The notes under the pieces: model-generated
Told to the model about the DNA's origin: nothing
Database searches by the model: none
The model's input: the letters and a program-made list of their open reading frames with translations, nothing else
Shown: piece after piece, positions 2,892 through 18,781 of the stretch
Numbering within the stretch: position 1 is the first letter of the stretch
Layout: each line of letters starts with the position of its first letter
Made by a program: the position numbers and the translations under genes
Source of the DNA: an uncultured Eubacteriales bacterium
Lineage (GTDB): Bacteria; Bacillota; Clostridia; TANB77; RGIG9151
Length of the DNA: 27,980 bases
Assembly (NCBI GenBank): GCA_964475435.1
Contig: CAYYWT010000001.1
Span: forward strand, 746 to 28,725
Reading direction: 5' to 3'

Positions 2892-3089
2892 CTACTTATT
2901 GATTTGAGAAAGTATTTCGTTTACATCTACACCGTGTACTTCACAAGCTTCAAGTAGCGTTTCCATTTGAGCGGAAGGGCACCCAAGACAATGCATTCCC
3001 ATTCCCATAAGAATAGGAGCAGCTTTCTCTCCGCACATTTCCATAATTTCACCGATTGTCATATCAGCAGTAATTTTTTCCATTTTCAT
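2892..3089 (-). CDS. DUF1858-type small redox-disulfide protein (hybrid-cluster-protein-associated family)
   Basis: 65 aa, MKMEKITADMTIGEIMEMCGEKAAPILMGMGMHCLGCPSAQMETLLEACEVHGVDVNEIL. The HCxGCP motif and overall pattern are typical of DUF1858 proteins. SD is AGGCGAG/GAAAGG upstream (rc ~3093-3101). Confidence 0.7.
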   Translation of the reverse strand: MKMEKITADMTIGEIMEMCGEKAAPILMGMGMHCLGCPSAQMETLLEACEVHGVDVNEILSQINK

Positions 3090-3172: not shown

Positions 3173-3201
3173 TAGACAAATGTTAAAAGTTGGAATATAA
3201 T
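3173..3201 (+). promoter_or_regulatory. candidate sigma-A promoter for the 3250 gene (and possibly the downstream locus)
   Basis: TAGACA (3173-3178), 17-nt spacer, TATAAT (3196-3201), 48 nt upstream of the ATG at 3250. Confidence 0.5.
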
Positions 3202-3249: not shown

Positions 3250-3567
3250 ATGAAGAAAAAAGTTGCTACAATCTTTACGTTTTGTGTTTTGATGACGACG
3301 GTATCGTTTGCAGCAACATACCCTACCATTATGAATAATTTAAAAAATGCTTTGACTCAAATTCAAGCTTGGCTTATTACTATTGCTACTCCGGCTGCTG
3401 CGATTGGCGTTATTACCGGTGTACTTATAAAAAAATTTAGTTTCGGAGATACTGAAAGAATGCTTACCGGAAGAAGGCTTATTCGATCATGCTTCGTTTC
3501 TTATGGCGTTGTTGTCGGAATTGATCTTATATTAAAGGCGATTACGACTTTTGTTACAAAGAAATAA
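3250..3567 (+). CDS. small secreted two-helix membrane protein, VirB2/TrbC-pilin-like topology
   Basis: Strong SD AAAGGAGGTG (3237-3246). Sec-type signal peptide MKKKVATIFTFCVLMTTVSFA|AT. Mature ~84 aa has two hydrophobic helices (AWLITIATPAAAIGVITGVLI and CFVSYGVVVGIDLILKAITTFV) joined by a basic loop KKFSFGDTERMLTGRRLIRS. The family call is inferred from this architecture only. Confidence 0.55.
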   Translation: MKKKVATIFTFCVLMTTVSFAATYPTIMNNLKNALTQIQAWLITIATPAAAIGVITGVLIKKFSFGDTERMLTGRRLIRSCFVSYGVVVGIDLILKAITTFVTKK

Positions 3568-3573
3568 TTTTTT

Positions 3574-3804
3574 AGAGACTGTAAAAAACTCATTTATTAT
3601 TAGAACAAAGCAATGTACTGTACCAAGAGAGACAAAAATTGCTTTTTTGTCCCTCTATGTAAAACATATTTTAAAGGTGCCCAGGATGTGAGCGTAAGCT
3701 CCGTTCCGTCCTTTAACTTAGCACTACACTTTCCACAAAAAATATTTTTGTTGAGCGAGGTACAGTACATTGCTTTATGAATTTTGTGAGTTTTTACAGT
3801 CTCT
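3574..3804 (+). repeat. full copy (C) of the long-hairpin repeat; its outer stem plus T7 forms a terminator-like structure between the 3250 gene and the 3830 gene
   Basis: AGAGACTGTAAAAAACTCA (3574-3592) pairs with TGAGTTTTTACAGTCTCT (3787-3804) and is followed by TTTTTT (3805-3810). Core 3616-3768 differs from copy B core 2689-2841 at 5 of 153 positions. Tip hairpin GAGC-GTAA-GCTC is at 3690-3701. Confidence 0.95.
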
Positions 3805-3829
3805 TTTTTTAATTAAAGGAGAAAAGAGT

Positions 3830-4651
3830 ATGGAAAAATTAGAGATAATTATTGCGACTCTTATGGTGCTTAAAGAGGCGGGGGAAGAAATTTCAGATTG
3901 GTTTTCGGTATCTATATCCGAAGAATTTTATTCAGCTCTTGATAAAATTACTTTTTTAACAAATAAATCACTTGGACTTTCCGGCAATGGTACGATTACC
4001 GATGCGACTTCTACTCTAGGAGAAGCTACTTGTGGGATTGGTAATTTGATAGTTTGGGGAATTTTACTTTATTATTGCTTTTGCAGTTTGTTTCAATATT
4101 TTTTGTCTAGGGAAGTAGAAATTCCATGGAAAGTTTTTATCAGAAGTATTATTTTCGGAATTTTAATTAATTCATCTTTTTTTATTTGCTACCAAGCAGT
4201 TTATTTTGCTGAAAATATTACGTTATATATTAGTGAGTATTGTGGCGGTAAAACTTCTTTCTCTTATATGGAGACTTTTAGTGATGAATTAGACTTAGAA
4301 ACTGATGAAGGACTTGAAGAAATAAGTATTTTTTCTATGAATGAACTGATAAAAGTATCGGCATATTTTATGACATTTGTTATGAGTGTTACTTTAGGTG
4401 GAAGATTTATTATTATAAAAGCTTTAATAATTTTATCTCCGATATTGTTAGCTTTTGGTTGTAGTAAATTAACTGAGAAAATTTTAACTAAAAGTGGTAA
4501 ATTATTTTTAAAACTTTTGGGTTACCAAATAGTGGTTGTAATAGTTTTAGAAATTTTTAATAATTTAAGTTTTTCAGGAGATGCAATTTTAGAGATTTTG
4601 TTTATTTCTACAATGTTAGTTGCAATAAAATTTGCGAAAAAAATATGCTAA
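3830..4651 (+). CDS. polytopic (5-6 TM) membrane protein, VirB6/TrbL-like
   Basis: ATG at 3830 follows SD AAAGGAGAAAAG (3815-3826). The 20 upstream codons of the tracked ORF (3770-3829) lie inside repeat C. About 95 aa of hydrophilic N-terminus is followed by helices such as GNLIVWGILLYYCFCSLFQYF and FIRSIIFGILINSSFFICYQAVYF. The segment IIKALIILSPILLAFGCSKLTEKILTKSGKLFLKLL resembles the VirB6/TrbL aP-x-lf-x-T-x-f-x-W region. Family call is an inference. Confidence 0.45.
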   Translation: MEKLEIIIATLMVLKEAGEEISDWFSVSISEEFYSALDKITFLTNKSLGLSGNGTITDATSTLGEATCGIGNLIVWGILLYYCFCSLFQYFLSREVEIPWKVFIRSIIFGILINSSFFICYQAVYFAENITLYISEYCGGKTSFSYMETFSDELDLETDEGLEEISIFSMNELIKVSAYFMTFVMSVTLGGRFIIIKALIILSPILLAFGCSKLTEKILTKSGKLFLKLLGYQIVVVIVLEIFNNLSFSGDAILEILFISTMLVAIKFAKKIC

Positions 4652-4712
4652 AACTATTAATTAAATTTACACTAAAGCCGATTAAAAAATTGAGAAAGGT
4701 AGGTAGGTTAAT

Positions 4713-5555
4713 GTGAAAATTTCAAGAGTGAGGCACGTAGTAATAACATGTATTATATTTTTGATTATAATTGCACTTATAATAACGGTGTATAATAATC
4801 GTTTGGAGGCTATTGCCAGAAATACTGAAGAGTATGTTAATAGGGTAGTTGCTACTGAAGATATTACTCCGGGGACTGTTATAACTGAAAAGAATGTTAA
4901 ACTTGTACAAATACAAGATGTTGTTAAGGCTGATGGGTTGGTATATAGACTAAATCAAAGAGATCAAGAAAGAGAAACTGTTGATGCAACTAATGAATAT
5001 AAAAATATGCTTTTAGCTGGTAAAATTAGTCCGTCTGCTTCATCGGACGATAGATGGGCTGTTGGTAAAACTGCTATTAGTACAATACGTAAAGGTGAAT
5101 TACTTATTGTTGATGACTTGAAATTGCCTGAAGATATGACTATGAGCAATGAAAGAATATATAGTATTTCTTTTGATTCATCTACGACTGGTGGATATAA
5201 TGTAAGAGTCGGAGATAAGATTGATATTTGTTTACTATATAATGATAATGAAAAAACTATAAAAGAATATCAAAATTTGGAAAAGAATAAGGCTATTGAT
5301 ATTGTTTTAGCTAAAAAAGAAATTATAGACATTAGGGATGAGGCAGGAAATAGTCAAGTTAATAATTCGGCGGTTGTTCCGGGTTATATATGTTTTAAGT
5401 TAACTTATGATGAAATTAATAAAGTTGAACTTGCTAAGAGACAAGGAAAAGTGTTTGCGGGAATTGTTGAAACATATCTTGATGATGCACATGTTGAAAC
5501 ATTTATGGATGGTGTAGAGTTGCCTACATTCGAAACTGATGATAGTAACTTTTAA
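4713..5555 (+). CDS. cpaB: Flp pilus assembly protein CpaB/RcpC-like (N-terminal TM plus SAF domain)
   Basis: GTG start at 4713 (the ATG at 4711 is out of frame and hits a stop immediately). SD is GAAAGGTAGGTAGG at 4694-4707. TM helix VVITCIIFLIIIALIITVY is followed by the SAF-like stretch RVVATEDITPGTVITEKNVKLVQIQ. Confidence 0.65.
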   Translation: MKISRVRHVVITCIIFLIIIALIITVYNNRLEAIARNTEEYVNRVVATEDITPGTVITEKNVKLVQIQDVVKADGLVYRLNQRDQERETVDATNEYKNMLLAGKISPSASSDDRWAVGKTAISTIRKGELLIVDDLKLPEDMTMSNERIYSISFDSSTTGGYNVRVGDKIDICLLYNDNEKTIKEYQNLEKNKAIDIVLAKKEIIDIRDEAGNSQVNNSAVVPGYICFKLTYDEINKVELAKRQGKVFAGIVETYLDDAHVETFMDGVELPTFETDDSNF

Positions 5556-5590
5556 TTAAATTGTGTAGTTTAGTAATAATTTGTTAAATG

Positions 5591-5612
5591 GGGCGGGGAT
5601 TTTTCACCGCCC
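5591..5612 (+). other. GC-rich intercistronic stem-loop without a U-tract
   Basis: GGGCGGGG (5591-5598) pairs with CACCGCCC (5605-5612), 7 of 8 bp, loop ATTTTT. It is followed by A6, not T, so it is not a canonical intrinsic terminator on either strand. It is conspicuous in otherwise AT-rich DNA. Confidence 0.6.
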
Positions 5613-5642
5613 AAAAAATATATGTTGGAAAGGAAGATATTT

Positions 5643-6488
5643 ATGAACGATAGAAATCCAAAAGTTATTTCTGTTGGAAGCGTAAAACATGGTCAAGGTG
5701 TTACTACACTTGCGTATAATTTGGCATATAAGTTATCTACTTTGTTACCGAAGAAAATACTTATTGTTGATGTTAATTATTTATTTAAGGAAATGAGCTA
5801 TTTAGCTGAACAAAATAATAAAAACGGGATAGATGATTTAATATCTATGGTAAAAACTCAAGAATTGACTCAAGATATTTTTATGTTACATACTGAGGAG
5901 ATAAATAGAAATTTAAGAGTTATTAATTCTACTCAAATTGAAACGCTAGATTATATAAAGAAAAATGATAAGTATTTAATAAAAGTTTTAGATGAAGCAA
6001 AGAAATATTTTGATATTATAATAGTTGATGCATCTGCTGGTGTTAAAAATTCGCTTACTACTGAACTATATGAATATAGTGATGTGTTTGTAAATATCCT
6101 AACTCAGAATGCGTATACAATAGATTGGTATACAAAGCATGAAAATTATAAAGATGATGATAAGATAGTAAATGTAATTAATATGTATGAGGAAGATATA
6201 TATCCTGATTACGGTGATATAAGGAAAGAGTTTAAACTTGAAAATATGGTGTTGCTAAGATATTCTAAGTTATTTAGACATTTCTATAACCAGAAAATTT
6301 TGGACCCTTTTTATAAGACTGAAGATTTATTTAATAATGATTTTTCGCAATTAATTGTAAAAATTGGAGAGAAAATAGAGTTAAAAGATTTATCTAAATT
6401 GGATATTGTAAATGACAATATGTTAATTGATGTAAAATATAATGATAAGAAAAAAGGATTTTTTAGCCGATTGTTTGGCAAAAAATAA
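5643..6488 (+). CDS. ParA/MinD-fold TadZ/CpaE-like protein with a degenerate Walker A
   Basis: Preferred ATG is 5643, 6 nt after GGAAAGGAAG (5627-5636); the alternative is 5622. P-loop region is VISVGSVKHGQGVTTLAYNLA (5676-5708 encodes GSVKHGQGVTT). Walker B-like segment is DIIIVDASAG. It sits immediately upstream of the TadA-type ATPase. Confidence 0.6.
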   Translation: MNDRNPKVISVGSVKHGQGVTTLAYNLAYKLSTLLPKKILIVDVNYLFKEMSYLAEQNNKNGIDDLISMVKTQELTQDIFMLHTEEINRNLRVINSTQIETLDYIKKNDKYLIKVLDEAKKYFDIIIVDASAGVKNSLTTELYEYSDVFVNILTQNAYTIDWYTKHENYKDDDKIVNVINMYEEDIYPDYGDIRKEFKLENMVLLRYSKLFRHFYNQKILDPFYKTEDLFNNDFSQLIVKIGEKIELKDLSKLDIVNDNMLIDVKYNDKKKGFFSRLFGKK

Positions 6489-6508
6489 ACTTTTCGGAGG
6501 GGAGAGTT

Positions 6509-7990
6509 ATGGCGGCTCAACAAGTGTTTTTGCAAGATATTATTAATTCAATAAAAGAGATAATGGAAAATTACAAGGAAGATAAGGAATTGAAGCTTTT
6601 ACATCAAAAGAAGATTGACCAAGCGGCGGCAGGTGGGATAGAAGCGAAAAGTTATGTAAAAGAAGAAATAATGAAAGTTTGTTTAAAAGATTTGAATACT
6701 AAGATTACTGAAGAAAACATAGACGATTTAATAAAACAATATCATGTTAATTATTATGAAAATATATATGGTGATGATCCTGAAGATAAATTTTATCAAA
6801 TCTTTGAACATATGATGTTGTCTGAAAATGATGAATTTGAAGTGAAGATGGAAAGACTTGTTCAAATAATATATCAAGAGTTGTACGGATTAGGCGTAAT
6901 TGATGAACTATGCGAAGGACATATTGATGAAACTGGGGTAAATGGTAAAGATTATATTTGGATTCAAGTTGGAGGTCTAAAACGTCAAATTAAAAAATTG
7001 CATTTCCAATCTCAGGCTGTTTTACAAAAGAAGGTTTCTACAGCTATAAGTTTTGATAGTAAAAGTGATATAACGGCGAGTGAACCGATAGTTTATTGCC
7101 AAAGAATGAATGGAAGCCGTGTTACGGCTGTTATTCCTCCAATAGCGAAATATCCTATCTTAAATATTCGTCATTTCCATTTAGCAAATGTTACGAAGTA
7201 TGATTTGGTAGATAAGGCTACATTAACTGATGATGCTGTAAGGTTTATTGAGTTAGTTTTTAAAGGCAGACCTAATTTCTTGATTATAGGTCAACAAGGT
7301 AGTGGTAAGTCTACATTACTTAGAGTTTTATTAAATGAAGTTTCGGATGCTATCGGTATCGGTACTATCGAGAATATGTTTGAGCTTAATTTAGATGATT
7401 ATTACCCTAATAAAAACGTAATTGCATTGCAGTCTACTGAAAAGTTCCCGGCTGATAAGTTATTTGAATTGATGCTAAGACAAAACAGAGATATTGTACT
7501 ACTTGGAGAAATTCGTTCTTCTAATGAGGCGGTAGAAACTATTAATGCGATGTTGCGTCAGTGTCGTGGTTCAGCGGCTACATTCCACAGTTCTTCTCCT
7601 ACTCGTGCGGTGCATGATTTGAGGAATTTATGTATGCGTAGTTCACAGTATAAAGATTTCTTAACAGCTCAATTCGACGTAGCGGATGCTATTGATTTAA
7701 TACTTGAGGGAAGACTTGACTATGAAACAGGTAAGAGGTATATAAATCGTATATCTGTAGTTGAAGCGAATGATGAAGATTATAAGTTTGAAGTTAATGA
7801 TATATTTAAGTACAATCACGACAAAAAGGAATTAGAACCAGTTCAATGTGTTTCTGATAAATTTATGGAAAAGTTATTGGATTATGGAATGCCGATAGAA
7901 AATATTGCTAAAATAAAAGCTATTTTTAATGAAAAAGTAAGAGATGTTGATAATACACAAAAAAGTAAGAAGAAAAGTGAAGAAAAATAG
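6509..7990 (+). CDS. tadA: TadA/CpaF-family secretion ATPase (VirB11/GspE superfamily)
   Basis: SD GGAGGGGAG (6497-6505). Walker A is GQQGSGKST (7289-7315). Walker B region is RDIVLLGEIR. His-box-like segment is GSAATFHSSS. Also has GVIDEL and the usual CpaF N-terminal domain. Confidence 0.85.
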   Translation: MAAQQVFLQDIINSIKEIMENYKEDKELKLLHQKKIDQAAAGGIEAKSYVKEEIMKVCLKDLNTKITEENIDDLIKQYHVNYYENIYGDDPEDKFYQIFEHMMLSENDEFEVKMERLVQIIYQELYGLGVIDELCEGHIDETGVNGKDYIWIQVGGLKRQIKKLHFQSQAVLQKKVSTAISFDSKSDITASEPIVYCQRMNGSRVTAVIPPIAKYPILNIRHFHLANVTKYDLVDKATLTDDAVRFIELVFKGRPNFLIIGQQGSGKSTLLRVLLNEVSDAIGIGTIENMFELNLDDYYPNKNVIALQSTEKFPADKLFELMLRQNRDIVLLGEIRSSNEAVETINAMLRQCRGSAATFHSSSPTRAVHDLRNLCMRSSQYKDFLTAQFDVADAIDLILEGRLDYETGKRYINRISVVEANDEDYKFEVNDIFKYNHDKKELEPVQCVSDKFMEKLLDYGMPIENIAKIKAIFNEKVRDVDNTQKSKKKSEEK

Positions 7991-8007
7991 AAGGGCAGGG
8001 AGATATA

Positions 8008-8964
8008 ATGGATGGAAATGTATTACAAACTGCCGATATTATGACTAAGTTGGGGAGCAGTTTATTAATTTTTATTGTGGTAGCAATTTTTATTTTGGTT
8101 GTAGTTGTAGTGTACATAGCGTATGTTGAAAAAAGGAATAGTTCGTGGCTTAATCAAAGACAAAGTGCGATTAAGGCTGTTTATTCGTTAAAAAATATAC
8201 CGTTTTTGTATGCTATTCAAACTAGAATTGCTAATAAATTTGCGATTACCAATACAGGAACACGTCAAGAAAATGAAAAATATGCGCTTTATGTTATGGC
8301 GTTTATTTGTATAATGGCTATAGGGATAATTTGTGGATTATGGCAATTTGTTAATCAGTATCCGTATGCAATAATTTTGTTATTGGCGATTGGAATTTCT
8401 ATCCCATGGATGTTGTTTAGTATATTTTATGAAGCCCAACTAGCCAAAATGATTAAACAGCTTCCTCAAGCGATAGACGAGTTTGCGAGCTCATACAGAA
8501 AATCTAATAAGGTATTTAATGCGTTAAAAGATTCATATCAATATATGCCAAAGGTTGTAGGAAAAGAATTTGAAAGATTATATAAATCTTATAATATTGA
8601 TTTCGAAGATGGTGTAGAGTATTTTAGAGAGAGAATAAAAAATGATTGGGCAGGTATTTTTGCAAGTCTACTTCTAATTAATTATACCAAAGGCGGAACT
8701 ATTATATCACAATTAGATGATTTAAATACTGAGATTGAAAATGATATAATTGCTAAAGATAGGGTTAGAAGTAAAATGCTTGGTTTTAAGTTAGTTGCGT
8801 TATCTAGTATGTTACTTATTGTATTGGTTATTTTCGCTAATATGATGATGTCCGAATCCGCTAAAGAGTATTACATGAATGTTAACGGTCAACAAGAAAT
8901 AATTTTAGCTTTAGCGGTAGGATTTATAACATTTTTATGTATGCTATTGGTAGAAAAATTGTAA
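8008..8964 (+). CDS. tadB: TadB-like inner-membrane platform protein (T2SS-F domain)
   Basis: N-terminal TM, two central TMs, a cytoplasmic helical T2SSF-like block (LPQAIDEFASSYRKSNKVFNALKDSY...EFERLYKSYNIDFEDGVEYFRERI) and C-terminal TMs. Position directly after the ATPase matches Tad loci. Confidence 0.7.
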   Translation: MDGNVLQTADIMTKLGSSLLIFIVVAIFILVVVVVYIAYVEKRNSSWLNQRQSAIKAVYSLKNIPFLYAIQTRIANKFAITNTGTRQENEKYALYVMAFICIMAIGIICGLWQFVNQYPYAIILLLAIGISIPWMLFSIFYEAQLAKMIKQLPQAIDEFASSYRKSNKVFNALKDSYQYMPKVVGKEFERLYKSYNIDFEDGVEYFRERIKNDWAGIFASLLLINYTKGGTIISQLDDLNTEIENDIIAKDRVRSKMLGFKLVALSSMLLIVLVIFANMMMSESAKEYYMNVNGQQEIILALAVGFITFLCMLLVEKL

Positions 8965-8981
8965 AGAGGTGATATTAAGAA

Positions 8982-10151
8982 ATGGCAACGAGTATTATAA
9001 TGAGTTTAATTATTGCAGCAATTATAATTTTAGTGCTAACATTATTGGTTTTGTGTATAAGACAACCTCAACAAGCTAAAATGAGAAATGACAAAGTTAC
9101 GTTGGAAATGCTTTCTTATTCGCCTATTTTTAAGAAAGCCGTTGATGCGATTATCCCGCCGGCTGAAGATAGAGAATTTAGGAAAAACGAAAGACTTATA
9201 AGTGATTCTGGTTATAATATGTCTATGAGAACATTATATTTCCTGAAACTTGTAATCCCGATTATGCTGTTAATTATATTTTTGTCTATTTATTTTATTA
9301 ATAGACAAGTTTATGTTGATGCAGTTATAACCGATAGCTTGACAAAAAATGTTGATGTGCTCGGTAGTAGTGCAAATGAAAAAGAAAAAACGAGTGAAGA
9401 GAAAAGTGAGTTTGAGCAAGCAAAACGTGATACGTATGATGTTGTTAATAGTTTTGTAGATAAACAAATTTTAAAAAGCGAAGATGCTATTGCTGTTAAA
9501 CAAGCTATTCAAGAAGCTTTCTTAAAAAATAATTTAGCGACTGAGTCTGATGTTTATTATCAAACGGAAGAAATGTACAATAAAATGCTTCAGGTAGAAA
9601 AAGCAAAGCAAATAAATCCGGTTACAATAATATTTATTGTCTTAGCTTCTTTAGTTGGTTTTATCGTGCCTGATGTTTTCTTAACATTGGCAAGGATGAT
9701 TAGATACCAGTCGTTTGATAATGAAATTATTGCGTTAGAAATGTTGACGATTTTGGTTGGTTCTATTGAGAATGTTACGGTAAAAGAAATTTTAAGAATT
9801 TTATCATTAAACAGTAAAGCTTTTAAGAAGAATTTCGAAAAAGCATTGCTTGAATATCCCATTGACTTTGAACAAGCGTTAATTAACTTAGGAGATAGTA
9901 GTAAAAATAAAGATTTCCAAGCTCTTATTTCTACATTAAGACAATGTGCTACATCAGATAAGTATTCAGCGCTTCAAACTCTTCAAAGAAGAAGAATTAG
10001 TAGAAAAGAGTACAGAAAACTTATGGAGGAGAAAAAAATTGAAACAAAAATGTACATTGGATTTATATTGTTAATTCCTGTATTATTCTTCTTGGCTAAG
10101 TTATTGTTATCTCCATGGCAAGATTTGATGAATAGTAGTGGATTGATGTAA
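8982..10151 (+). CDS. tadC: TadC-like inner-membrane platform protein (T2SS-F domain)
   Basis: N-terminal TM, second TM at LKLVIPIMLLIIFLSIYFI, a coiled/charged linker, then a T2SSF-like block (FDNEIIALEMLTILVGSIENVTVKEILRILS...FEKALLEYPIDFEQALINLG) and a terminal TM. It is a paralogous partner of the preceding gene. Confidence 0.65.
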   Translation: MATSIIMSLIIAAIIILVLTLLVLCIRQPQQAKMRNDKVTLEMLSYSPIFKKAVDAIIPPAEDREFRKNERLISDSGYNMSMRTLYFLKLVIPIMLLIIFLSIYFINRQVYVDAVITDSLTKNVDVLGSSANEKEKTSEEKSEFEQAKRDTYDVVNSFVDKQILKSEDAIAVKQAIQEAFLKNNLATESDVYYQTEEMYNKMLQVEKAKQINPVTIIFIVLASLVGFIVPDVFLTLARMIRYQSFDNEIIALEMLTILVGSIENVTVKEILRILSLNSKAFKKNFEKALLEYPIDFEQALINLGDSSKNKDFQALISTLRQCATSDKYSALQTLQRRRISRKEYRKLMEEKKIETKMYIGFILLIPVLFFLAKLLLSPWQDLMNSSGLM

Positions 10152-10181
10152 AGAATTTTATAAAAAGGAGAGTAATGAAAA

Positions 10182-10886
10182 ATGTTTTGTCCTAATTGTG
10201 GTAAAGAAGTTGGAGATTTTGATTTAACTTGTGAAGGGTGTGGATATACTTTAAAAGATAATGATGCTAAACCTAAAATAAAAACTACAGGACTTTTGGT
10301 GTGGAGCATTATTGAAATGATAAGTTGTTATACTTTTATTCCTGGACTTGTTGGACTTATTTTATGGATTAATAGCCTAAAACCTGCTGCTAATAGAGGA
10401 GATGTAGAAGGTGCTAAAAAGGCTAAAAAAAGAATAAAGATATCATTATGGATTGGCGTAGTAATCTGGGTATTAATTTTGGTAGTGATTGCTTTGTTAG
10501 TTGCGATTCCTAATGTTGTTGATGTAAGAGATACAACAGGATATAGCATAGAACTTAGTGATGCTACTAGAATAGGACAAGCTGTAAGAGTTTGGTATGT
10601 TGATGCTATATCTGATCCGGAGTTAGATTATGATATACCTACTGAGTGGGAATTAACAGCTGAGTTAGATGATATATATAATTATACAAGTATTGGCACT
10701 ACTAAGGATGGAAAAGATTATTATACAGCAATACAAAATACTGGGAAATTTGCTCCCAGAGTACTTATCGGAGTATCCTATACAGGAGAAGATTTGCCAC
10801 CGGTTTCGGATGTAGATGGAGTTACATATGACGGAAATGGTTCGGGAGTTTGCTATGTAGAATATATTGGGGATCTGATTTATTAG
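10182..10886 (+). CDS. zinc-ribbon / CD225(dispanin)-like membrane protein with a C-terminal extracytoplasmic domain that begins with a pilin-like helix
   Basis: SD AAAAGGAGAG (10164-10172). Zn-ribbon is CPNCG...CEGCG. The CD225-like two-TM unit has the loop NSLKPAANRGDVEGAKKAKKRIK. The second TM and following sequence, VLILVVIALLVAIPNVVDVRDTT...ATRIGQAVRVWY, resembles a type IV pilin alpha-1 helix but lacks a G/FxxxE cleavage motif. Confidence 0.5.
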   Translation: MFCPNCGKEVGDFDLTCEGCGYTLKDNDAKPKIKTTGLLVWSIIEMISCYTFIPGLVGLILWINSLKPAANRGDVEGAKKAKKRIKISLWIGVVIWVLILVVIALLVAIPNVVDVRDTTGYSIELSDATRIGQAVRVWYVDAISDPELDYDIPTEWELTAELDDIYNYTSIGTTKDGKDYYTAIQNTGKFAPRVLIGVSYTGEDLPPVSDVDGVTYDGNGSGVCYVEYIGDLIY

Positions 10887-10912
10887 TTTTTGGGAAAATC
10901 CGATTGTAAAAG

Positions 10913-10938
10913 GGTGGGCGAAAGTCCATCTTTTTTTT
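10913..10938 (+). terminator. intrinsic terminator ending the Tad-like operon
   Basis: GGTGGGC (10913-10919), GAAA loop, GTCCATC (10924-10930): a 7-bp stem with two G-U pairs, followed by T8 (10931-10938). Confidence 0.7.
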
Positions 10939-13936: not shown

Positions 13937-15643
13937 ATGGAGGAATATTTAGAGTTTAAAAATGCTCAATGTAAAGACTGTTACAAATGTCTAAGAGAAT
14001 GTCCAGTAAAAGCTATAAAGGTTGTTGATCATCAAGCTAAGATTATAAAAGAAAGATGTATTTTGTGTGGCAAATGTACTCAAGTTTGCCCACAAAATGC
14101 TAAAAGAGTGCATAGTTCGATAAGTGAAGTAATGGAACTTATAAAAAATAATAAGAAAGTTATAGCGAGTGTTGCTCCTTCATTTATTTCGAGCTTTAAG
14201 GTAAGTGATTTTTCTGTTATGAAGATAGCTTTGTGTAAACTTGGATTTTTTGATGCTGAGGAAACTTCGATAGGAGCTAATGTAGTGGTTCAAGAGTATG
14301 AAAAACTTTTAAAGAGTGGAAAATTTAAAAACTTTATTACATCAGCTTGTCCTGCAATTAATAGAATGATACAGATTTATTATCCTAATGTGTTACCGTA
14401 TTTAGCGCCTGTTGATACTCCGGCAATTGCTCATGCGAAAATGATTAAAGAAGCTGATAAAGATGCTAAAGTAGTTTTTATAGGACCTTGTATTGCTAAA
14501 AAAATGGAGGGTAAGGAAAGCGAAGTTATAGATGGAGTGCTTACTTTTGAAGAACTTACGGAGTTGTTTAATGAAAATAATATTGATTTAACAATGATTT
14601 CTAATGTTCCGTTTGAGGAGAATAAAAAAATTACTAATAGAGCTAAATATTTTCCGATTAGTAGAGGGATTATAAAATCTTTTTCAAAGTTGCCGGAAGG
14701 ATATGAATATATAGCGGTAGACGGAGTTGAGCGTTGCTTTGAGGTTTTAAATAGTATTACTGATTTGTCCGGGATATTTCTTGAAATTAACAGTTGTTCC
14801 GGAGCTTGTATAAACGGTCCTTGCAGTTTGACTAAGGAAAAAGAATGTATTAGTTCGAATGCTACAATAAGAAATTATGTAAAAAAAGAAATTGCAAATG
14901 GTACAGGTAATGAAAAAATAGATTATGATTTGGATTTTACAAAGGAATTCCCTAGACTCAGAGCGGGAGATATACCAGGTACTGATAAACAAATTGAGGC
15001 TATTCTTGCTAAAACCGGTAAGCTAAGACCTGAAGATGAGCTAAATTGTGGAGTATGTGGATATTCTACTTGTCGAGCTAAGGCTTGGGCTGTATTAAAC
15101 GGGTATGCCGATATTGATATGTGTTTACCGTATATGAGAAAAAAAGCTGAGTCTATGTCATATGAGATTATTCAAAATAGTCCGAATGGAATTATAGTTG
15201 TTGACAGTGAACTTAAAATTGTTGATATAAATGCTAAAGCAATGGAACTTGGCGGAATTACAGGATATGATGTTAAAGGTAAATATGTGGTTGATTATTT
15301 TGAACCTACAGATTTCGTGTTTGCATTAAATGATGAAAAAAATGTAGTTAGAAAGAAGATGTATATTCCTAAGACTAAGTCATATGTTGAACTATCTATA
15401 ACTTATATGAAAGAGCATAAGACGATGTTTGCGATTATGAAGGATATTACAAGTGGTGTAAATTATAGTGAAAAGTTAAATAGTGTAAAGCAAGAAACAT
15501 TTAAGACTACTGATGAGGTTATAAATAAGCAAATGAGAGTAGTTCAAGAAATTGCGTCGTTGCTTGGAGAAACTACTGCCGAATCTAAAGTGGCTTTGCT
15601 TAAGTTGAAGAAAACTTTAGCTGAGGAGGAGGAAGAAGAATGA
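13937..15643 (+). CDS. hydS: sensory-type [FeFe]-hydrogenase homologue with C-terminal PAS domain (HydS / HfsB-like)
   Basis: Two N-terminal 4Fe-4S motifs: CKDCYKCLRECP and CILCGKCTQVCP. H-cluster motifs are TSACP (14339-14353), GPCIAKK and INSCSGACINGPC. An extra Cys cluster CGVCGYSTC is present. PAS-like segment is IIQNSPNGIIVVDSELKIVDINAKAMEL. Confidence 0.8.
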   Translation: MEEYLEFKNAQCKDCYKCLRECPVKAIKVVDHQAKIIKERCILCGKCTQVCPQNAKRVHSSISEVMELIKNNKKVIASVAPSFISSFKVSDFSVMKIALCKLGFFDAEETSIGANVVVQEYEKLLKSGKFKNFITSACPAINRMIQIYYPNVLPYLAPVDTPAIAHAKMIKEADKDAKVVFIGPCIAKKMEGKESEVIDGVLTFEELTELFNENNIDLTMISNVPFEENKKITNRAKYFPISRGIIKSFSKLPEGYEYIAVDGVERCFEVLNSITDLSGIFLEINSCSGACINGPCSLTKEKECISSNATIRNYVKKEIANGTGNEKIDYDLDFTKEFPRLRAGDIPGTDKQIEAILAKTGKLRPEDELNCGVCGYSTCRAKAWAVLNGYADIDMCLPYMRKKAESMSYEIIQNSPNGIIVVDSELKIVDINAKAMELGGITGYDVKGKYVVDYFEPTDFVFALNDEKNVVRKKMYIPKTKSYVELSITYMKEHKTMFAIMKDITSGVNYSEKLNSVKQETFKTTDEVINKQMRVVQEIASLLGETTAESKVALLKLKKTLAEEEEEE

Positions 15644-16800
15644 GCCTTTTTCTTGAGTACGGTTATACTTCGTTAAACAAAGCAGGCGAGGAATTATGCG
15701 GAGATAATGTTGCTATTTCTGTTAATGGGGATTATACGACTTTAGTTTTGGCGGATGGTTTAGGAAGCGGAGTAAAGGCTAATATTTTATCTACACTTAC
15801 GTCTAAAATCCTGTGCACGATGATTTCTAATGATATAGAAATAGAAGAATGTATAGAAACTATGATACAATCTTTGCCTGTTTGCAAAGTTAGAGGGCTT
15901 GCTTATTCTACTTTTTCTGTTGTTCATATAAATAATGAAGGAAATGGATATCTAGTTGAATTCGATAATCCGCAAGCTATTTATTTACACGATAATAAAG
16001 CTCTTGATTTTGAAAGAGAGAGAATGGATATTTTAGGTAAGGTTGTTTATAAGACGAAACTTAATCTAAAACCGTCTGATGTAATTGTTGTTATGTCTGA
16101 TGGGACTGTTCACGCCGGAATAGGAATGCTTCTTAATTTAGGCTGGCAAAGGGCTGAGATTATGGAGTATTTAGAGAAAACGGTTACTCCTAAAATGTCG
16201 GCAAGATGTATTGCTTGTTTACTTGCGTCTGCTTGTAATGATTTATATTTGGATAAGCCGGGAGACGATACGACTGTTGCCGGAATAAGAATTCGTGAAA
16301 AGTCTCCTATAAATATTATGGTTGGTCCACCGGTGGATAAATCTAAAGATGATGAATATATAGGCGAGTTTATGCGTATGAAAGGAAAGCACATTGTTTG
16401 TGGAGGTACGAGTTCTCAAATTGTTGCTAGATATTTAGGTGAAGAACTTTATACCAGTCTTGATTTTTCAGATAAGGAAATTCCGCCGATAGCCTTTATT
16501 AAAGGAATTGATTTAGTAACAGAAGGAGTTATTACCATTAGAAAACTTCTTGCTATGTCTGAAAAATATTTAGATGTAAAAGATGTTACTCCTAAATACT
16601 ATGTAAAGAATGACGGAGCCTCATTGCTTGCAGAAGCTTTGTTTGAAGATGCTACAAATGTTAATTTTTTTGTGGGTCAAAGTGTAAATGTGGCTCATCA
16701 GGGGTTACCGATTGATACGACTATGAAATTAAAGTTAGTAGAGGCTTTATCTGAAAATTTAAAGAAAATGGGTAAAGACGTTACTGTTAAGTATTTTTAA
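15640..16800 (+). CDS. SpoIIE/PP2C-family protein phosphatase (HfsC-like)
   Basis: The start ATG overlaps the hydS stop (ATGA at 15640-15643). Sequence GEELCGDNVAISVNGDYTTLVLADGLGSGVKANILS ... VVMSDGTVHAG fits PP2C/SpoIIE. Confidence 0.7.
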   Translation: MSLFLEYGYTSLNKAGEELCGDNVAISVNGDYTTLVLADGLGSGVKANILSTLTSKILCTMISNDIEIEECIETMIQSLPVCKVRGLAYSTFSVVHINNEGNGYLVEFDNPQAIYLHDNKALDFERERMDILGKVVYKTKLNLKPSDVIVVMSDGTVHAGIGMLLNLGWQRAEIMEYLEKTVTPKMSARCIACLLASACNDLYLDKPGDDTTVAGIRIREKSPINIMVGPPVDKSKDDEYIGEFMRMKGKHIVCGGTSSQIVARYLGEELYTSLDFSDKEIPPIAFIKGIDLVTEGVITIRKLLAMSEKYLDVKDVTPKYYVKNDGASLLAEALFEDATNVNFFVGQSVNVAHQGLPIDTTMKLKLVEALSENLKKMGKDVTVKYF

Positions 16801-16812
16801 CGGAGGTATGTT

Positions 16813-17346
16813 ATGAGAGTTCTTATAGCGTCAGATATTCACGGTTCTGAATTTTTTATGAATAAGTTAATGAAACGTTTTTATGATGAAAATGTTGAAC
16901 AACTTATTTTATTAGGGGATTTGTATTATCACGGACCTAGAAATTCTTTGCCGGAAGGATATAATTCGCAAAAGGTTGCGGATATTTTAAATAGTATTAA
17001 AGATAAGATTTTATGTGTCAGAGGAAATTGTGACAGCGAAGTTGATGAAATGATTTCTAAATTTCACTTTACGGAAAACTTACAATTATATCTAAATGAG
17101 AAAAAAGTTTTTTTGACTCACGGACATAAATTGGAAGAGGAAAAAATAAAGAATGTTTATGATATTGTTATTTACGGACATTTACACACAGGCTTTATTA
17201 AGCGTGATGAGGGAACTATATTTGCTAATACAGGTTCGGTATCTTTGCCTAAAAATGGTACTGCTAATAGTTATATAGTTCTTAATGATACCAAAATTGA
17301 ATTAAAAGATTTAGACGGAAATTTAATTGAAAGTGAGGATTTTTAG
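16813..17346 (+). CDS. YfcE/MJ0936-family metallophosphoesterase
   Basis: Motifs VLIASDIHG, LGDLYYHGPRN, RGNCD, LTHGH and YGHLH. 177 aa. Confidence 0.8.
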   Translation: MRVLIASDIHGSEFFMNKLMKRFYDENVEQLILLGDLYYHGPRNSLPEGYNSQKVADILNSIKDKILCVRGNCDSEVDEMISKFHFTENLQLYLNEKKVFLTHGHKLEEEKIKNVYDIVIYGHLHTGFIKRDEGTIFANTGSVSLPKNGTANSYIVLNDTKIELKDLDGNLIESEDF

Positions 17347-17347
17347 A

Positions 17348-18781
17348 ATGAAAAAATTTGATACGAAGGTTCAACATTTAAAATATAAAGTGCTAAGAGA
17401 AGTAATTAAGAAAGCTGATGCTGATGATTTGCAAAATGTTTACCGCGACGTACCTAATATTGTTGTGCCGGGTCCTAAAGCTAGTATGAGATGTTGTATA
17501 TATAAAGAGAGAGCTATTGTTCAAGAGAGAATTAAAATGGCGCTTGGCGGAGATAAAGAAAATCCAAATGTTGTTGAGGTTATAGATATTGCTTGCGATG
17601 AATGTCCTATTGAAGGAATGTTGGTTACTCAAGCGTGTCGTGGTTGCATTGTTAACAGATGTACGGAGGTTTGCCCAAGAGGTGCTATAAGTATTGTTAA
17701 TAAAAAAGCTGTTATTGATAAAGATAAATGTATAGAATGTGGATTATGTACTAAGGCTTGCCCTTATTCCGCTATAATTGCTCAAAAGAGACCTTGTGTG
17801 AATAGTTGTAAGGTAAAGGCTATTAGTATGGGAGAAGATAAAAAGGCTGTAATAGATAATGATAAATGTATATCTTGCGGTGCTTGTGTTTATCAATGCC
17901 CATTTGGTGCTATTGTGGACAAGTCTTTGATTATGGATGTTTTGAAGATACTAAAAGAATCAGATGATAATAAGAATTATAAGGTATATGCTGTTATTGC
18001 ACCTTCTATTGTAAGCCAATTTAAATATGCTAAAATAGAACAGATAATTACAGGTATTAAGAAACTCGGATTTCACAATGTGGTTGAAGCTGCGCTTGGT
18101 GCGGATATTACTTTACATCACGAATTGGGAGAGTTAAAAGAAAAAGGGGTTATGACTACTTCTTGTTGTCCATCGTTTGTTATGTTTATTGAAAAGAATT
18201 TCCCTGAATTAACTAAATATATTTCGAGTTCTGTTTCTCCTATGGTTGAAACAGCTAAGTTAATTAAAAGGTCTGAACCTAATGCGAAGGTTATCTTTAT
18301 CGGACCTTGTTCGAGTAAAAAACATGAGTACAAGCTTCCTAAGACTGAAGGTGCTATTGATAGTGTTTTATCTTTTGAGGAATTACAGGCGTTCTTTGAC
18401 GCTAGAAATATAGATATTGCTTCTTTAGAAGAGTCCTCTTTAGATAATGCATCTTATTACGGAAGAATATTTGCAAAGTCAGGCGGTATAGCTAAGGGAG
18501 TTCGCGAAATAGGGGAGAGTATGGGACTTGATGTAAAACCTATTGCTATGAGTGGAATTGATGAATGTAGAGCGGCTTTATTGAAATTAAAAGCTAATAA
18601 AGCAGTTGAGAATTTCTTTGAAGGAATGGCTTGTGACGGGGGTTGCTTAAATGGAGCGCTTTGCTTAAGTCATGGACCTAAAAATGCGGCTGATGTAGAT
18701 AAATATGGTGAAGATGCAAAAGAAAAGACCATTGATAATTCTGTAAAATTATATGAAATGAGTTTAAATAAATCTGAATAA
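17348..18781 (+). CDS. [FeFe]-hydrogenase with N-terminal ferredoxin-like 4Fe-4S domains (HfsD-like)
   Basis: Preferred ATG is 17348, 8 nt after AGTGAGGA and 1 nt after the upstream stop. The tracked start at 17327 would overlap the previous gene. 4Fe-4S motifs: CIECGLCTKACP and CISCGACVYQCP. Canonical H-cluster motifs are TSCCP (18158-18172), GPCSSKK and MACDGGCLNG. Confidence 0.85.
   Translation: MKKFDTKVQHLKYKVLREVIKKADADDLQNVYRDVPNIVVPGPKASMRCCIYKERAIVQERIKMALGGDKENPNVVEVIDIACDECPIEGMLVTQACRGCIVNRCTEVCPRGAISIVNKKAVIDKDKCIECGLCTKACPYSAIIAQKRPCVNSCKVKAISMGEDKKAVIDNDKCISCGACVYQCPFGAIVDKSLIMDVLKILKESDDNKNYKVYAVIAPSIVSQFKYAKIEQIITGIKKLGFHNVVEAALGADITLHHELGELKEKGVMTTSCCPSFVMFIEKNFPELTKYISSSVSPMVETAKLIKRSEPNAKVIFIGPCSSKKHEYKLPKTEGAIDSVLSFEELQAFFDARNIDIASLEESSLDNASYYGRIFAKSGGIAKGVREIGESMGLDVKPIAMSGIDECRAALLKLKANKAVENFFEGMACDGGCLNGALCLSHGPKNAADVDKYGEDAKEKTIDNSVKLYEMSLNKSE

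Follow-up and report, generated by a model that had tools for sequence, protein, structure and literature searches.

Type IV filament machines (type IV pili, T4P; Tad pili; type II secretion systems, T2SS; archaella) and type IV secretion systems (T4SS) count as separate superfamilies, each with its own ATPases, subunits, and maturation. Can parts of the two be joined into one machine? The question is raised by a locus located at positions 3250-10886 of a 27,980-nucleotide stretch of DNA from an uncultured Eubacteriales bacterium (contig CAYYWT010000001.1; the whole stretch is hereinafter referred to as the window), where two genes coding for VirB2-like and VirB6-like proteins are followed by five genes corresponding to the motor and platform of a Tad system. 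Such a joined operon would mean either that modules are swappable between the two superfamilies, or that a co-regulated pilus-plus-conduit pair exists in monoderm gut bacteria. The analysis described below points to the fusion of two modules that are still found intact in related genomes, and a probability of roughly 0.4 is assigned to the possibility that the seven genes encode a single apparatus, in which the Tad core drives the VirB2/VirB6 pair.

An earlier note on this DNA had described eight co-oriented genes in this region, and the eight open reading frames (ORFs) do lie there, all in the same orientation. The gaps between them are short, the only exception being the 262 nt between g1 and g2, which are occupied by one copy of a 241-nt repeat. 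The genes are:

3250..3567, + strand: g1, VirB2/TrbC-like (T4SS_pilin-like) protein of 105 aa, assigned by Pfam, topology, and family matches
3830..4651, + strand: g2, VirB6/TrbL-like polytopic membrane protein of 273 aa, assigned by fold and transitive profile matches
4713..5555, + strand: g3, CpaB/RcpC-like protein with an N-terminal transmembrane (TM) helix, a SAF domain, and an RcpC domain
5622..6488, + strand: g4, TadZ/CpaE-like protein with a ParA/MinD fold (AAA_31, 37.5 bits, cut-off 27; MinD and eps family matches)
6509..7990, + strand: g5, CpaF/TadA-type secretion ATPase (T2SSE, E 5e-20)
8008..8964, + strand: g6, TadB-like platform protein with five hydrophobic segments and a cytoplasmic T2SSF-like domain
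8982..10151, + strand: g7, putative TadC-like platform protein, assigned by position and topology, with a weak local match to g6
10182..10886, + strand: g8, Zn-ribbon and CD225-like membrane protein with two TM helices and a C-terminal extracytoplasmic domain of about 125 aa

The first point concerns the nature of the two leading genes. According to its hydropathy, the g1 product begins with a signal peptide of the Sec type (..VSFA↓AT) and possesses two hydrophobic helices as well as the charged loop KKFSFGD, i.e., the signal peptide, the two TM helices, and the short charged loop of VirB2/TrbC pilins. The Pfam matches of g1 itself are weak (PF18895 T4SS_pilin, E 0.002; TrbC, E 0.06); among 67 diverse homologues, PF18895 is matched by 60 (best 2.4e-6) and PF04956 TrbC/VirB2 by 28, and, since all these matches score below the gathering score, membership in VirB2 is to be understood at the clan level. 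The loop KKFSFGD is invariant throughout the family; it is known that in VirB2-type pili the charged loop faces the lumen (10.64898/2025.12.18.695078). A profile built on the g1 alignment returned only noise against PDB sequences, and no match to g1 was found by tblastn among 72,556 plasmids. An origin from a plasmid or from an integrative and conjugative element was rejected on the basis of this latter result and of the housekeeping context of the locus.

The ORF of g2 is open from position 3770, its true start being probably the ATG at 3830, which is preceded by a GGAG-type ribosome binding site. No direct Pfam match was obtained for this protein. However modest the confidence of its AlphaFold model (predicted local distance difference test, pLDDT, 68; predicted template modeling score, pTM, 0.63), the top four PDB matches retrieved with it by Foldseek are all TrwI/VirB6 of the R388 T4SS (probability 0.97-1.0, E ~0.04, template modeling score 0.43). 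A profile search over 1.8 billion representatives yielded only 100 relatives of g2, 59 of which were scanned: PF04610 TrbL/VirB6 is matched by 17 of them (best 2.5e-8) and TrbL_4 by 4. The g2 product, a fast-evolving protein, has the features of the VirB6/TrbL polytopic channel or base. Both upstream products had been read in the earlier note as T4SS parts, a Sec-signal, two-helix VirB2/TrbC-like protein and a VirB6/TrbL-like one, and these data sustain both assignments.

The second point concerns the five genes that follow. The g3 product exhibits the combination of SAF (27.8 bits, cut-off 21) and RcpC (27.9 bits, E 2.4e-6, just below the cut-off of 28.8) that is typical of CpaB/RcpC proteins, together with a match to TIGR03177 CpaB (E 2e-12) falling below the equivalog cut-off, and it is orthologous to the first gene of two complete Tad loci that are described below. 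No TadZ-specific model was matched by g4, whose TadZ label comes from its position; its P-loop, GSVKHGQGVTT, is degenerate and devoid of the canonical lysine (window 5652-5690, residues 11-23). Some TadZ proteins have been reported to bind nucleotides without hydrolyzing them, and by analogy g4 may do the same. In g5 all the motifs are intact, that is, the Walker A GQQGSGKST of the earlier note (7289-7315), the Walker B DIVLLGE (7490-7510), and the His box (7580-7591). Even though NCBIfam models do not separate TadA from VirB11 in this case, the comparison of g5 with solved structures places it in the CpaF/TadA clade: the score for Caulobacter CpaF (8rkd, 9e24; E 3.7e-24) is far better than those for archaeal GspE (2e-13) and VirB11 (8e-8), and the possibility that g5 is a VirB11 was rejected on this ground.

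The two platform proteins are less clearly recognizable. The T2SSF match of g6 is weak (E 0.089), as it is in all nine proteins of the set composed of g6 and eight orthologues (best E 0.007, below cut-off), and g6 corresponds to the gene at the TadB position in the complete Tad loci. The g7 family consists of 72 proteins, all at least 50% identical, none of which contains a Pfam domain, and the g7 orthologues of the complete Tad loci are located between the TadB-like gene and the arrays of Flp-like genes. The AlphaFold model of g7 (pLDDT 67, pTM 0.44) has no meaningful Foldseek match, the profiles of both g6 and g7 gave only noise against PDB sequences, and the comparison of the two profiles by hhalign disclosed just a short local match or motif (E 0.0014, probability 17%). 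Since g7 has no family signal, naming it TadC is a positional call. Hence, of the five-gene Tad/Cpa core that had been proposed, g3, g4 (as a ParA fold), and g5 stand on family scores and g6 on a weak T2SSF match, whereas for g7 the expected family is not recovered.

The third point is whether these genes belong together. The order g1-g7 is kept in at least nine lineages besides the window (L004-L006, L007/L008, L009, L010, L012, L013, L019, L103, and L104, in our numbering of the related loci), the closest genomes being rumen and gut metagenome-assembled genomes labelled as uncultured Eubacteriales or Clostridia. Compared with the window proteins, g5 is the most conserved (87-96% identity) and g2 the least (32-78%), and none of the seven ORFs is broken in any lineage. 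In pairwise comparisons the ratio of nonsynonymous to synonymous substitutions (dN/dS) is 0.03-0.13 for g1 and g4-g7 (g1, 0.04-0.09; g4, 0.03-0.09; g5, 0.03-0.05), 0.06-0.27 for g3, and 0.28-0.54 for g2, synonymous sites being saturated (dS >1). The seven genes are under purifying selection over a long divergence, and their clustering is not a chance arrangement; the persistence of selection despite the saturation of synonymous sites indicates that a Tad core without a nearby pilin is still in use. The surroundings of the cluster differ between subclades: in the window, L013, and L103 it is flanked by topA-dprA-DUF1858 on one side and by adhE or VanY on the other; in L004, L012, L019, and L104 it is preceded by recN, two unknown genes, VirD4, a gene for a 55-aa protein, ispG, CTP_transf, and DUF1858, and followed by dnaE-uvrA. 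A transposase is found among the downstream neighbors of the cluster in related loci. In more distant relatives, either module occurs alone.

The eighth gene does not share this behavior. The g8 product matches Zn_Ribbon_1 (E 6.6e-6) and, weakly, CD225 (E 5e-4), but no homologue of it was found beside the cluster in any related locus so that, among the loci compared, it is present in this genome only. Since g8 never recurs, the conserved unit is g1-g7 (3250-10151) rather than the whole region 3250-10886: the two upstream genes are co-conserved with the tad genes and the downstream g8 is not, so that the conservation of the eight-gene order, which had been suggested as a check by gene neighborhood, holds for seven genes only. 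Wedged between the tadC-like g7 and a terminator match, g8 is a lineage-specific passenger at the operon end. It was rejected both as a part of the system, for want of co-conservation, and as a pilin; in the earlier note it had been seen as a fusion of a Zn-ribbon/CD225 module with a pilin-like helix, and, while the Zn-ribbon and a weak CD225 are there, the helix is internal, with about 90 residues before it, and carries no class III motif.

Where do the two halves of the conserved unit come from? The loci that bear on this question are:

L001-L003, L015-L018, L020-L098, and L105-L106: loci of a four-gene cassette containing g1 and g2 (e.g., L017 8108-11527)
L099 11576-15693 and L101 11345-14831: complete Tad loci of sister lineages, with arrays of mini-pilins

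A metagenome scan carried out with the g1 family disclosed 80 loci. In at least 70 of these, a DUF1858 gene on the opposite strand is followed by a gene for a 550-590-aa ATPase resembling type IV coupling proteins (T4CP), by g1, by g2, and by a gene for a 94-aa protein with two TM helices. Widespread among Clostridia of the human gut and the rumen, the cassette always adjoins the divergent DUF1858 gene; many of its loci are on contigs of 100-450 kb, in a housekeeping context, and dnaD/dnaB-like and dnaI-like genes usually follow it. The ATPase is T4CP-like by virtue of a TrwB_AAD_bind match (35 bits, above the cut-off) and of a TraG-D_C match; no PDB relative of it was detected by phmmer. In the case of the 94-aa protein, the matches to PrgI/VirB3 are weak and were obtained for 4 of 24 members (best E 0.006). 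By its gene content, the cassette is a chromosomal mini-T4SS without relaxase and without VirB4.

Outside the fused clade, g3-g7 have their nearest relatives in L099 (on the same contig as L011) and in L101/L102, whose identity to the window clade is 54-57% in g7 and 77-84% in g5. These loci show the order CpaB-TadZ-CpaF-TadB-TadC, followed directly by three to five pilin-like genes (48-68 aa; hydrophobic helix; leader ..KGG↓IETII..), then by genes for proteins of 173-187 aa with a KKGG↓IDT leader and for a 298/667-aa protein, and by a Peptidase_A24 gene scoring above the cut-off. Neither g1 nor g2 is located upstream of them. The small proteins do not match Pfam Flp_Fap, and they are called pilins because of their leader motif, their size, their organization in arrays, and the adjacent A24 peptidase. 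These mini-pilins form paralogous arrays with an unusual leader (..KGG↓I/V-E/A-T/S-I..). One of the proteins with the KKGG↓IDT leader has a weak DUF4320 match, and the 667-aa protein of the L099 array carries Flg_new repeats.

Since both modules are intact in relatives, the fused operon is the derived state. By their gene contents, g1-g2 derive from the cassette and g3-g7 from a complete Tad locus, by an operon fusion that has been vertically inherited in one clade of uncultured Clostridia. What each half lacks is complementary, in that the T4SS-type half has neither the T4CP-like ATPase nor the PrgI-like gene, and the Tad half has neither the Flp arrays, nor the pseudopilin-like genes, nor the A24 peptidase. 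A further difference concerns g2: every g2 protein of the T4CP-type cassettes ends with a conserved cytoplasmic C-terminal tail (..E(F/L)xGG(I/L)ST(D/E/N).. plus about 15 residues), which is absent from every Tad-fused g2 (that of the window ends at 4651). An example of the tail is at about 11140-11227 of L017. This tail is a candidate docking element for the ATPase that has been lost.

The absence of the missing parts was checked in the window and in the 10-kb flanks of related loci, profiles having been run on the window proteins other than the ORF at 13937-15643 and several small ORFs. The window and the 10-kb flanks of nine related loci were searched for a Flp-type prepilin by tblastn (queries, the pilins of L099 and L101), by phmmer, and by a scan for the class-III-leader motif, and none was found; the motif scan recovers most positive controls overall (5/5 pilins of L099 and 3/3 small pilins of L101). 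Likewise, the list of small ORFs of the window does not include any Flp-type ORF. There is no A24 prepilin peptidase among the scanned window proteins or the called genes of L004, L007, L103, and L104, and up to 10 kb from the cluster neither this peptidase nor pseudopilin-like proteins occur in L004, L007, L012, L013, L103, and L104. As for TadE/TadF-type proteins, no fused locus contains a homologue of the 173-187-aa KKGG↓IDT proteins or of the 298/667-aa protein of L099 and L101. On the T4SS side, neither the window nor the 10 kb around the cluster of any fused locus holds a homologue of the cassette-type T4CP or of the 94-aa protein; VirB4 was not found among the scanned window proteins or in the Pfam lists of the related loci, nor VirD4/T4CP in the scanned part of the window, nor a relaxase or an integrase among the housekeeping genes that flank the cluster in the window and in the related loci (topA, dprA, adhE, dnaE, uvrA, ispG). 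Within this scope, the two absences pointed out in the earlier note, that of Flp pilin, peptidase, and pseudopilins and that of VirB4, VirD4, and relaxase beside the upstream pair, are confirmed.

How might such a unit work? If g1-g7 form a single apparatus, the Tad motor would have taken over the energizing role of the lost T4CP-like ATPase. The motor would be a hexamer of CpaF with TadB and TadC as its platform; the TadZ-like protein would set its location, and CpaB would accompany it. After insertion by Sec, g1 would polymerize on a g2 oligomer, by analogy with PrgF/PrgH and VirB2/VirB6, and the product might be a short filament or a conduit through the wall, serving cell contact or the exchange of macromolecules, probably DNA. 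After the fusion, the T4CP-like gene, the gene for the 94-aa protein, the flp array, and tadV would have become dispensable. We infer co-transcription, physical coupling, the role of g1 as filament subunit, and the cargo. DNA would be the natural guess for a module derived from T4CP and VirB6, and the neighbors dprA, topA, recN, dnaE, and uvrA are compatible with it, even though they are ordinary housekeeping genes and no evidence for such a cargo. A single apparatus would account for the complementary losses, for the missing tail of g2, for the tight operon, and for the selection acting on a Tad core without a nearby pilin. Its strongest form is a chimera between superfamilies, with a Tad motor and platform replacing an ATPase of the VirB4/VirD4 class and either assembling or gating a filament or conduit, whose Sec-processed, two-helix pilin of the VirB2 type would stand on a VirB6-type base, with no class III prepilin or peptidase; this we put forward as a tentative idea that is rather more apt to fail than to hold. 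If true, it would represent a third way to build a conjugative-type pilus and the first type IV filament motor acting on a subunit other than a type IV pilin.

Several observations weigh against a single apparatus. In the fused clade, the Tad proteins differ from those of L099 and L101 no more than these differ from each other, as the identities between L099/L101 and the fused clade (52-57% for g7, 52-65% for g6, 77-84% for g5) compare with 52%, 58%, and 76%, respectively, between L099 and L101, and their lengths are unchanged; the Tad core therefore shows no trace of a switch of substrate. The g1 loop is the same in both types of cassette, the T4CP-type and the Tad-fused one, so that no adjustment to a new partner is visible in g1. 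For the TadC-like g7, similarity to T2SSF was found neither with Pfam nor with a PDB profile nor with Foldseek, and the case for co-transcription comes from consensus scans for promoters and terminators only. It is known that flp and tadV are unlinked from tadABC in several bacteria, and to our knowledge no type IV filament platform has so far been seen to act on a subunit of the VirB2 type, with two helices and processing by Sec. The hypothesis also needs three independent deletions, which would be neutral only where the parts are redundant.

Lastly, one subclade encodes, 2.6 kb upstream of g1, a full-length VirD4 that belongs to the CD1115 family (NF045973, E 6e-125; L004 5476-7338, also in L005; L012 2831-4693; L019 5878-7734; L104 249-2105) and that could energize g1-g2 instead. 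It is an orphan, no other conjugation genes having been found near it. On one side of this gene are recN and two unknown genes (192 and 228 aa), on the other side is ispG, and a gene for a 55-58-aa protein of YtxH-like appearance follows it. The 58-aa protein encoded after VirD4 in L004 was considered as a Flp pilin and rejected in view of its YtxH-like look and of the absence of a leader motif, the motif scan being negative.

The hybrid reading advanced in the earlier note, i.e., a Tad motor and platform combined with a T4SS-type filament and channel, has therefore gained from the finding of both parents complete elsewhere, from the complementary absences, and from the loss of the g2 tail, and has lost from the unaccelerated Tad core, from the VirD4 of some relatives, and from the CD225 bracket, which is not supported.

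Among the rival explanations, the one that survives best assumes two co-operating machines encoded by one operon, namely a Tad pilus bringing cells together and a VirB2/VirB6 conduit, energized by a VirD4/T4CP, moving DNA or protein, with the missing genes located elsewhere in the genome. The lack of acceleration or of architectural change in the Tad core after the fusion, the unchanged g1 loop, and the CD1115-family VirD4 situated upstream in one subclade are what it would lead one to expect; its mechanism would be a conventional one, and partnerships between T4P and T4SS-like machines have good precedents, such as Ups and Ced in Sulfolobales, the thin pili and T4SS of R64, and the T4P and T4SS of Patescibacteria (PMC9905601; PMC12857230; 10.1101/2025.01.22.634366). 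Nevertheless, four sets of genes (the flp array, the pseudopilin-like genes, the A24 peptidase, and the T4CP with the 94-aa protein) would have to be unlinked in every fused lineage, whereas they are tightly linked to their cores wherever the flanks are visible, i.e., in nearly all the cassette loci and in two distinct complete Tad loci. Moreover, in the subclade to which the window belongs, no VirD4 is present in the sequence available upstream of g1 (about 3.2 kb for the window, 4-7 kb for L103 and L013), and the loss of the g2 tail is left unexplained. Two machines are hence a serious contender, with a real but less than even chance of being the correct solution.

It might also be that a local rearrangement placed the two modules side by side by accident and that descent has kept them so, the modules being functionally unrelated and their missing genes lying elsewhere. 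Other lineages do contain each of the modules by itself, the genes around the cluster have been rearranged between subclades, and in the window a mobile 241-nt repeat separates g1 from g2. This explanation is unlikely: it would have to account for an order and a tight spacing preserved in at least nine lineages in spite of saturated synonymous sites and reshuffled flanks, and it would turn the complementary absences and the loss of the g2 tail into coincidences. That the cluster is the decaying remnant of a conjugative-element T4SS and of a Tad locus, heading for loss, might be suggested by the local absence of VirB4, relaxase, pilins, and peptidase, but is very improbable and largely refuted by the selection data (seven ORFs intact in every lineage, five of them with dN/dS of 0.03-0.13), besides the intact ATPase motifs of g5, the housekeeping context without an integrase, and the lack of a g1 match among 72,556 plasmids.

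The locus may be compared with known systems. With the Tad/Flp systems (Aggregatibacter tad, Caulobacter cpa, Bifidobacterium breve tad) it shares CpaB, CpaF, and, by position, a TadZ/CpaE-like protein and a putative TadB/TadC-type pair, in the usual order; unlike them, the fused clade has no local Flp prepilin, TadE/F-like proteins, or TadV, and two T4SS-type genes lead the operon. Helicobacter pylori ComB is a chromosomal T4SS derivative with VirB2-like and VirB6-like parts that transports DNA for purposes other than conjugation; it retains VirB4 and VirB7-10 and has no Tad components. In PrgF/PrgH of pCF10, a small two-helix protein with a charged loop is likewise paired with a polytopic VirB6-like protein in a monoderm, but the fused locus is chromosomal, has no VirB4, VirB8, VirB1, or relaxase, and its ATPase is of the CpaF type. 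VirB2-like proteins, including those of Gram-positive T4SSs, have been proposed to polymerize on a VirB6 pentamer (bioRxiv 10.64898/2025.12.18.695078).

The archaeal Ced/Ted systems are domesticated chromosomal T4SS derivatives composed of a VirB2-like pilin, a VirB6-like channel, and one ATPase, and act together with the Ups pilus (PMC9905601). They have the same minimal layout as the Clostridial cassette, i.e., a chromosomal, non-mobile VirB2-like and VirB6-like pair with a single ATPase, which is T4CP-like in the ancestral cassette; in the window the arrangement is formally the same, with CpaF. The archaeal ATPase (CedB/TedB) is VirB4/HerA-like, whereas that of the cassette is TrwB/TraG-D-like and that of the window CpaF-like; there is no detectable sequence relationship between the Ced/Ted and the Clostridial proteins, and for the latter a function in DNA import between cells would be hinted at only by the neighbors active in DNA metabolism, which are also ordinary housekeeping genes. 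The Patescibacteria T4SS is, in turn, found in monoderms, chromosomal, without relaxase, equipped with arrays of VirB2-like PF18895/PF04956 genes, and functionally tied to a type IV filament machine, an essential T4P (10.1101/2025.01.22.634366; PMC12857230); unlike the fused operon, which holds a filament core without pilins, Patescibacteria keep VirB4, VirB8, and VirD4 and have complete T4P loci that lie apart. In two Clostridial loci (L001 and L002) the cassette lies within about 3 kb of an origin block made up of parB, parA, gidB, gidA, and trmE (L001 10621-16982), a position that echoes the one reported for the T4SS genes of Patescibacteria.

As VirB4 is the only ubiquitous T4SS marker (PMC4027160), it is worth stressing that the fused locus falls outside both parent families as they are defined, the Tad parts being locally missing and VirB4, T4CP, and relaxase not having been found. 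Until 2025, monoderms were believed to be devoid of VirB2-type pili. In a 2025 review on T4SSs, potential pili of this type are still ascribed, among monoderms, to Patescibacteria alone (PMC12857230), and a preprint of December 2025 extends VirB2-like proteins to Gram-positive plasmids, though not to chromosomal cassettes or to Tad (10.64898/2025.12.18.695078). The survey of type IV filaments by Denise et al. includes Tad systems in Clostridia and, in the parts consulted, does not mention such a chimera (PMC6668835), while the Tad cluster of TANB77 is a different, pilin-bearing locus (PMC11680825). No description of an operon joining Tad with VirB2/VirB6, or of the four-gene cassette, was found in the literature search. 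The composition is thus a new combination of two known kinds, and would be categorically new if both halves form one machine. The cassette could bear on DNA exchange among uncultured gut Clostridia. Since the canonical and the fused states both exist in close relatives, the question is directly testable.

Outside the conserved unit, the following features were located in the window:

3173..3201, + strand: sigma-70-like promoter match (TAGACA-17-TATAAT, 11/12), the best of the region, 49 nt 5' of g1; a consensus match only
10908..10935, + strand: intrinsic-terminator-like hairpin with a 12-pair stem followed by a T run, the best of the region, 22 nt 3' of g8; a consensus match only
2892-3089, - strand: DUF1858 gene, upstream of g1
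1507-2673, - strand: dprA, upstream of g1
upstream of g1, - strand: start of topA, which runs off the window

Downstream of the cluster, the window contains adhE, genes for hydrogenase-like Fe-S proteins and for SpoIIE/PP2C phosphatases, rlmN, a gene for a PASTA kinase, rsgA, and cmk, and the context of the cluster is therefore that of housekeeping genes. Rfam and tRNA scans of the window were empty.

The 241-nt repeat is present in two copies that are 87% identical (2628-2868, between dprA and the DUF1858 gene, and 3555-3795, in the g1/g2 gap), and a partial copy of 70 nt lies just beyond dprA (1437-1506). It resembles a miniature inverted-repeat transposable element, with 43-nt terminal inverted repeats (arms 3607-3649 and 3734-3776), has no Rfam match, and generates spurious small ORFs, such as those at 2686-2907 and 3613-3780. 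Finally, after adhE, positions 13937-18781 are occupied by a run of Fe-S and [FeFe]-hydrogenase-like genes, including those for a 568-aa protein of sensory appearance and for a 484-aa protein with Fe_hyd_lg_C, interleaved with a SpoIIE-type phosphatase and a metallophosphoesterase; these genes appear to resemble a hydrogenase-like sensory module and to be unrelated to g1-g7.

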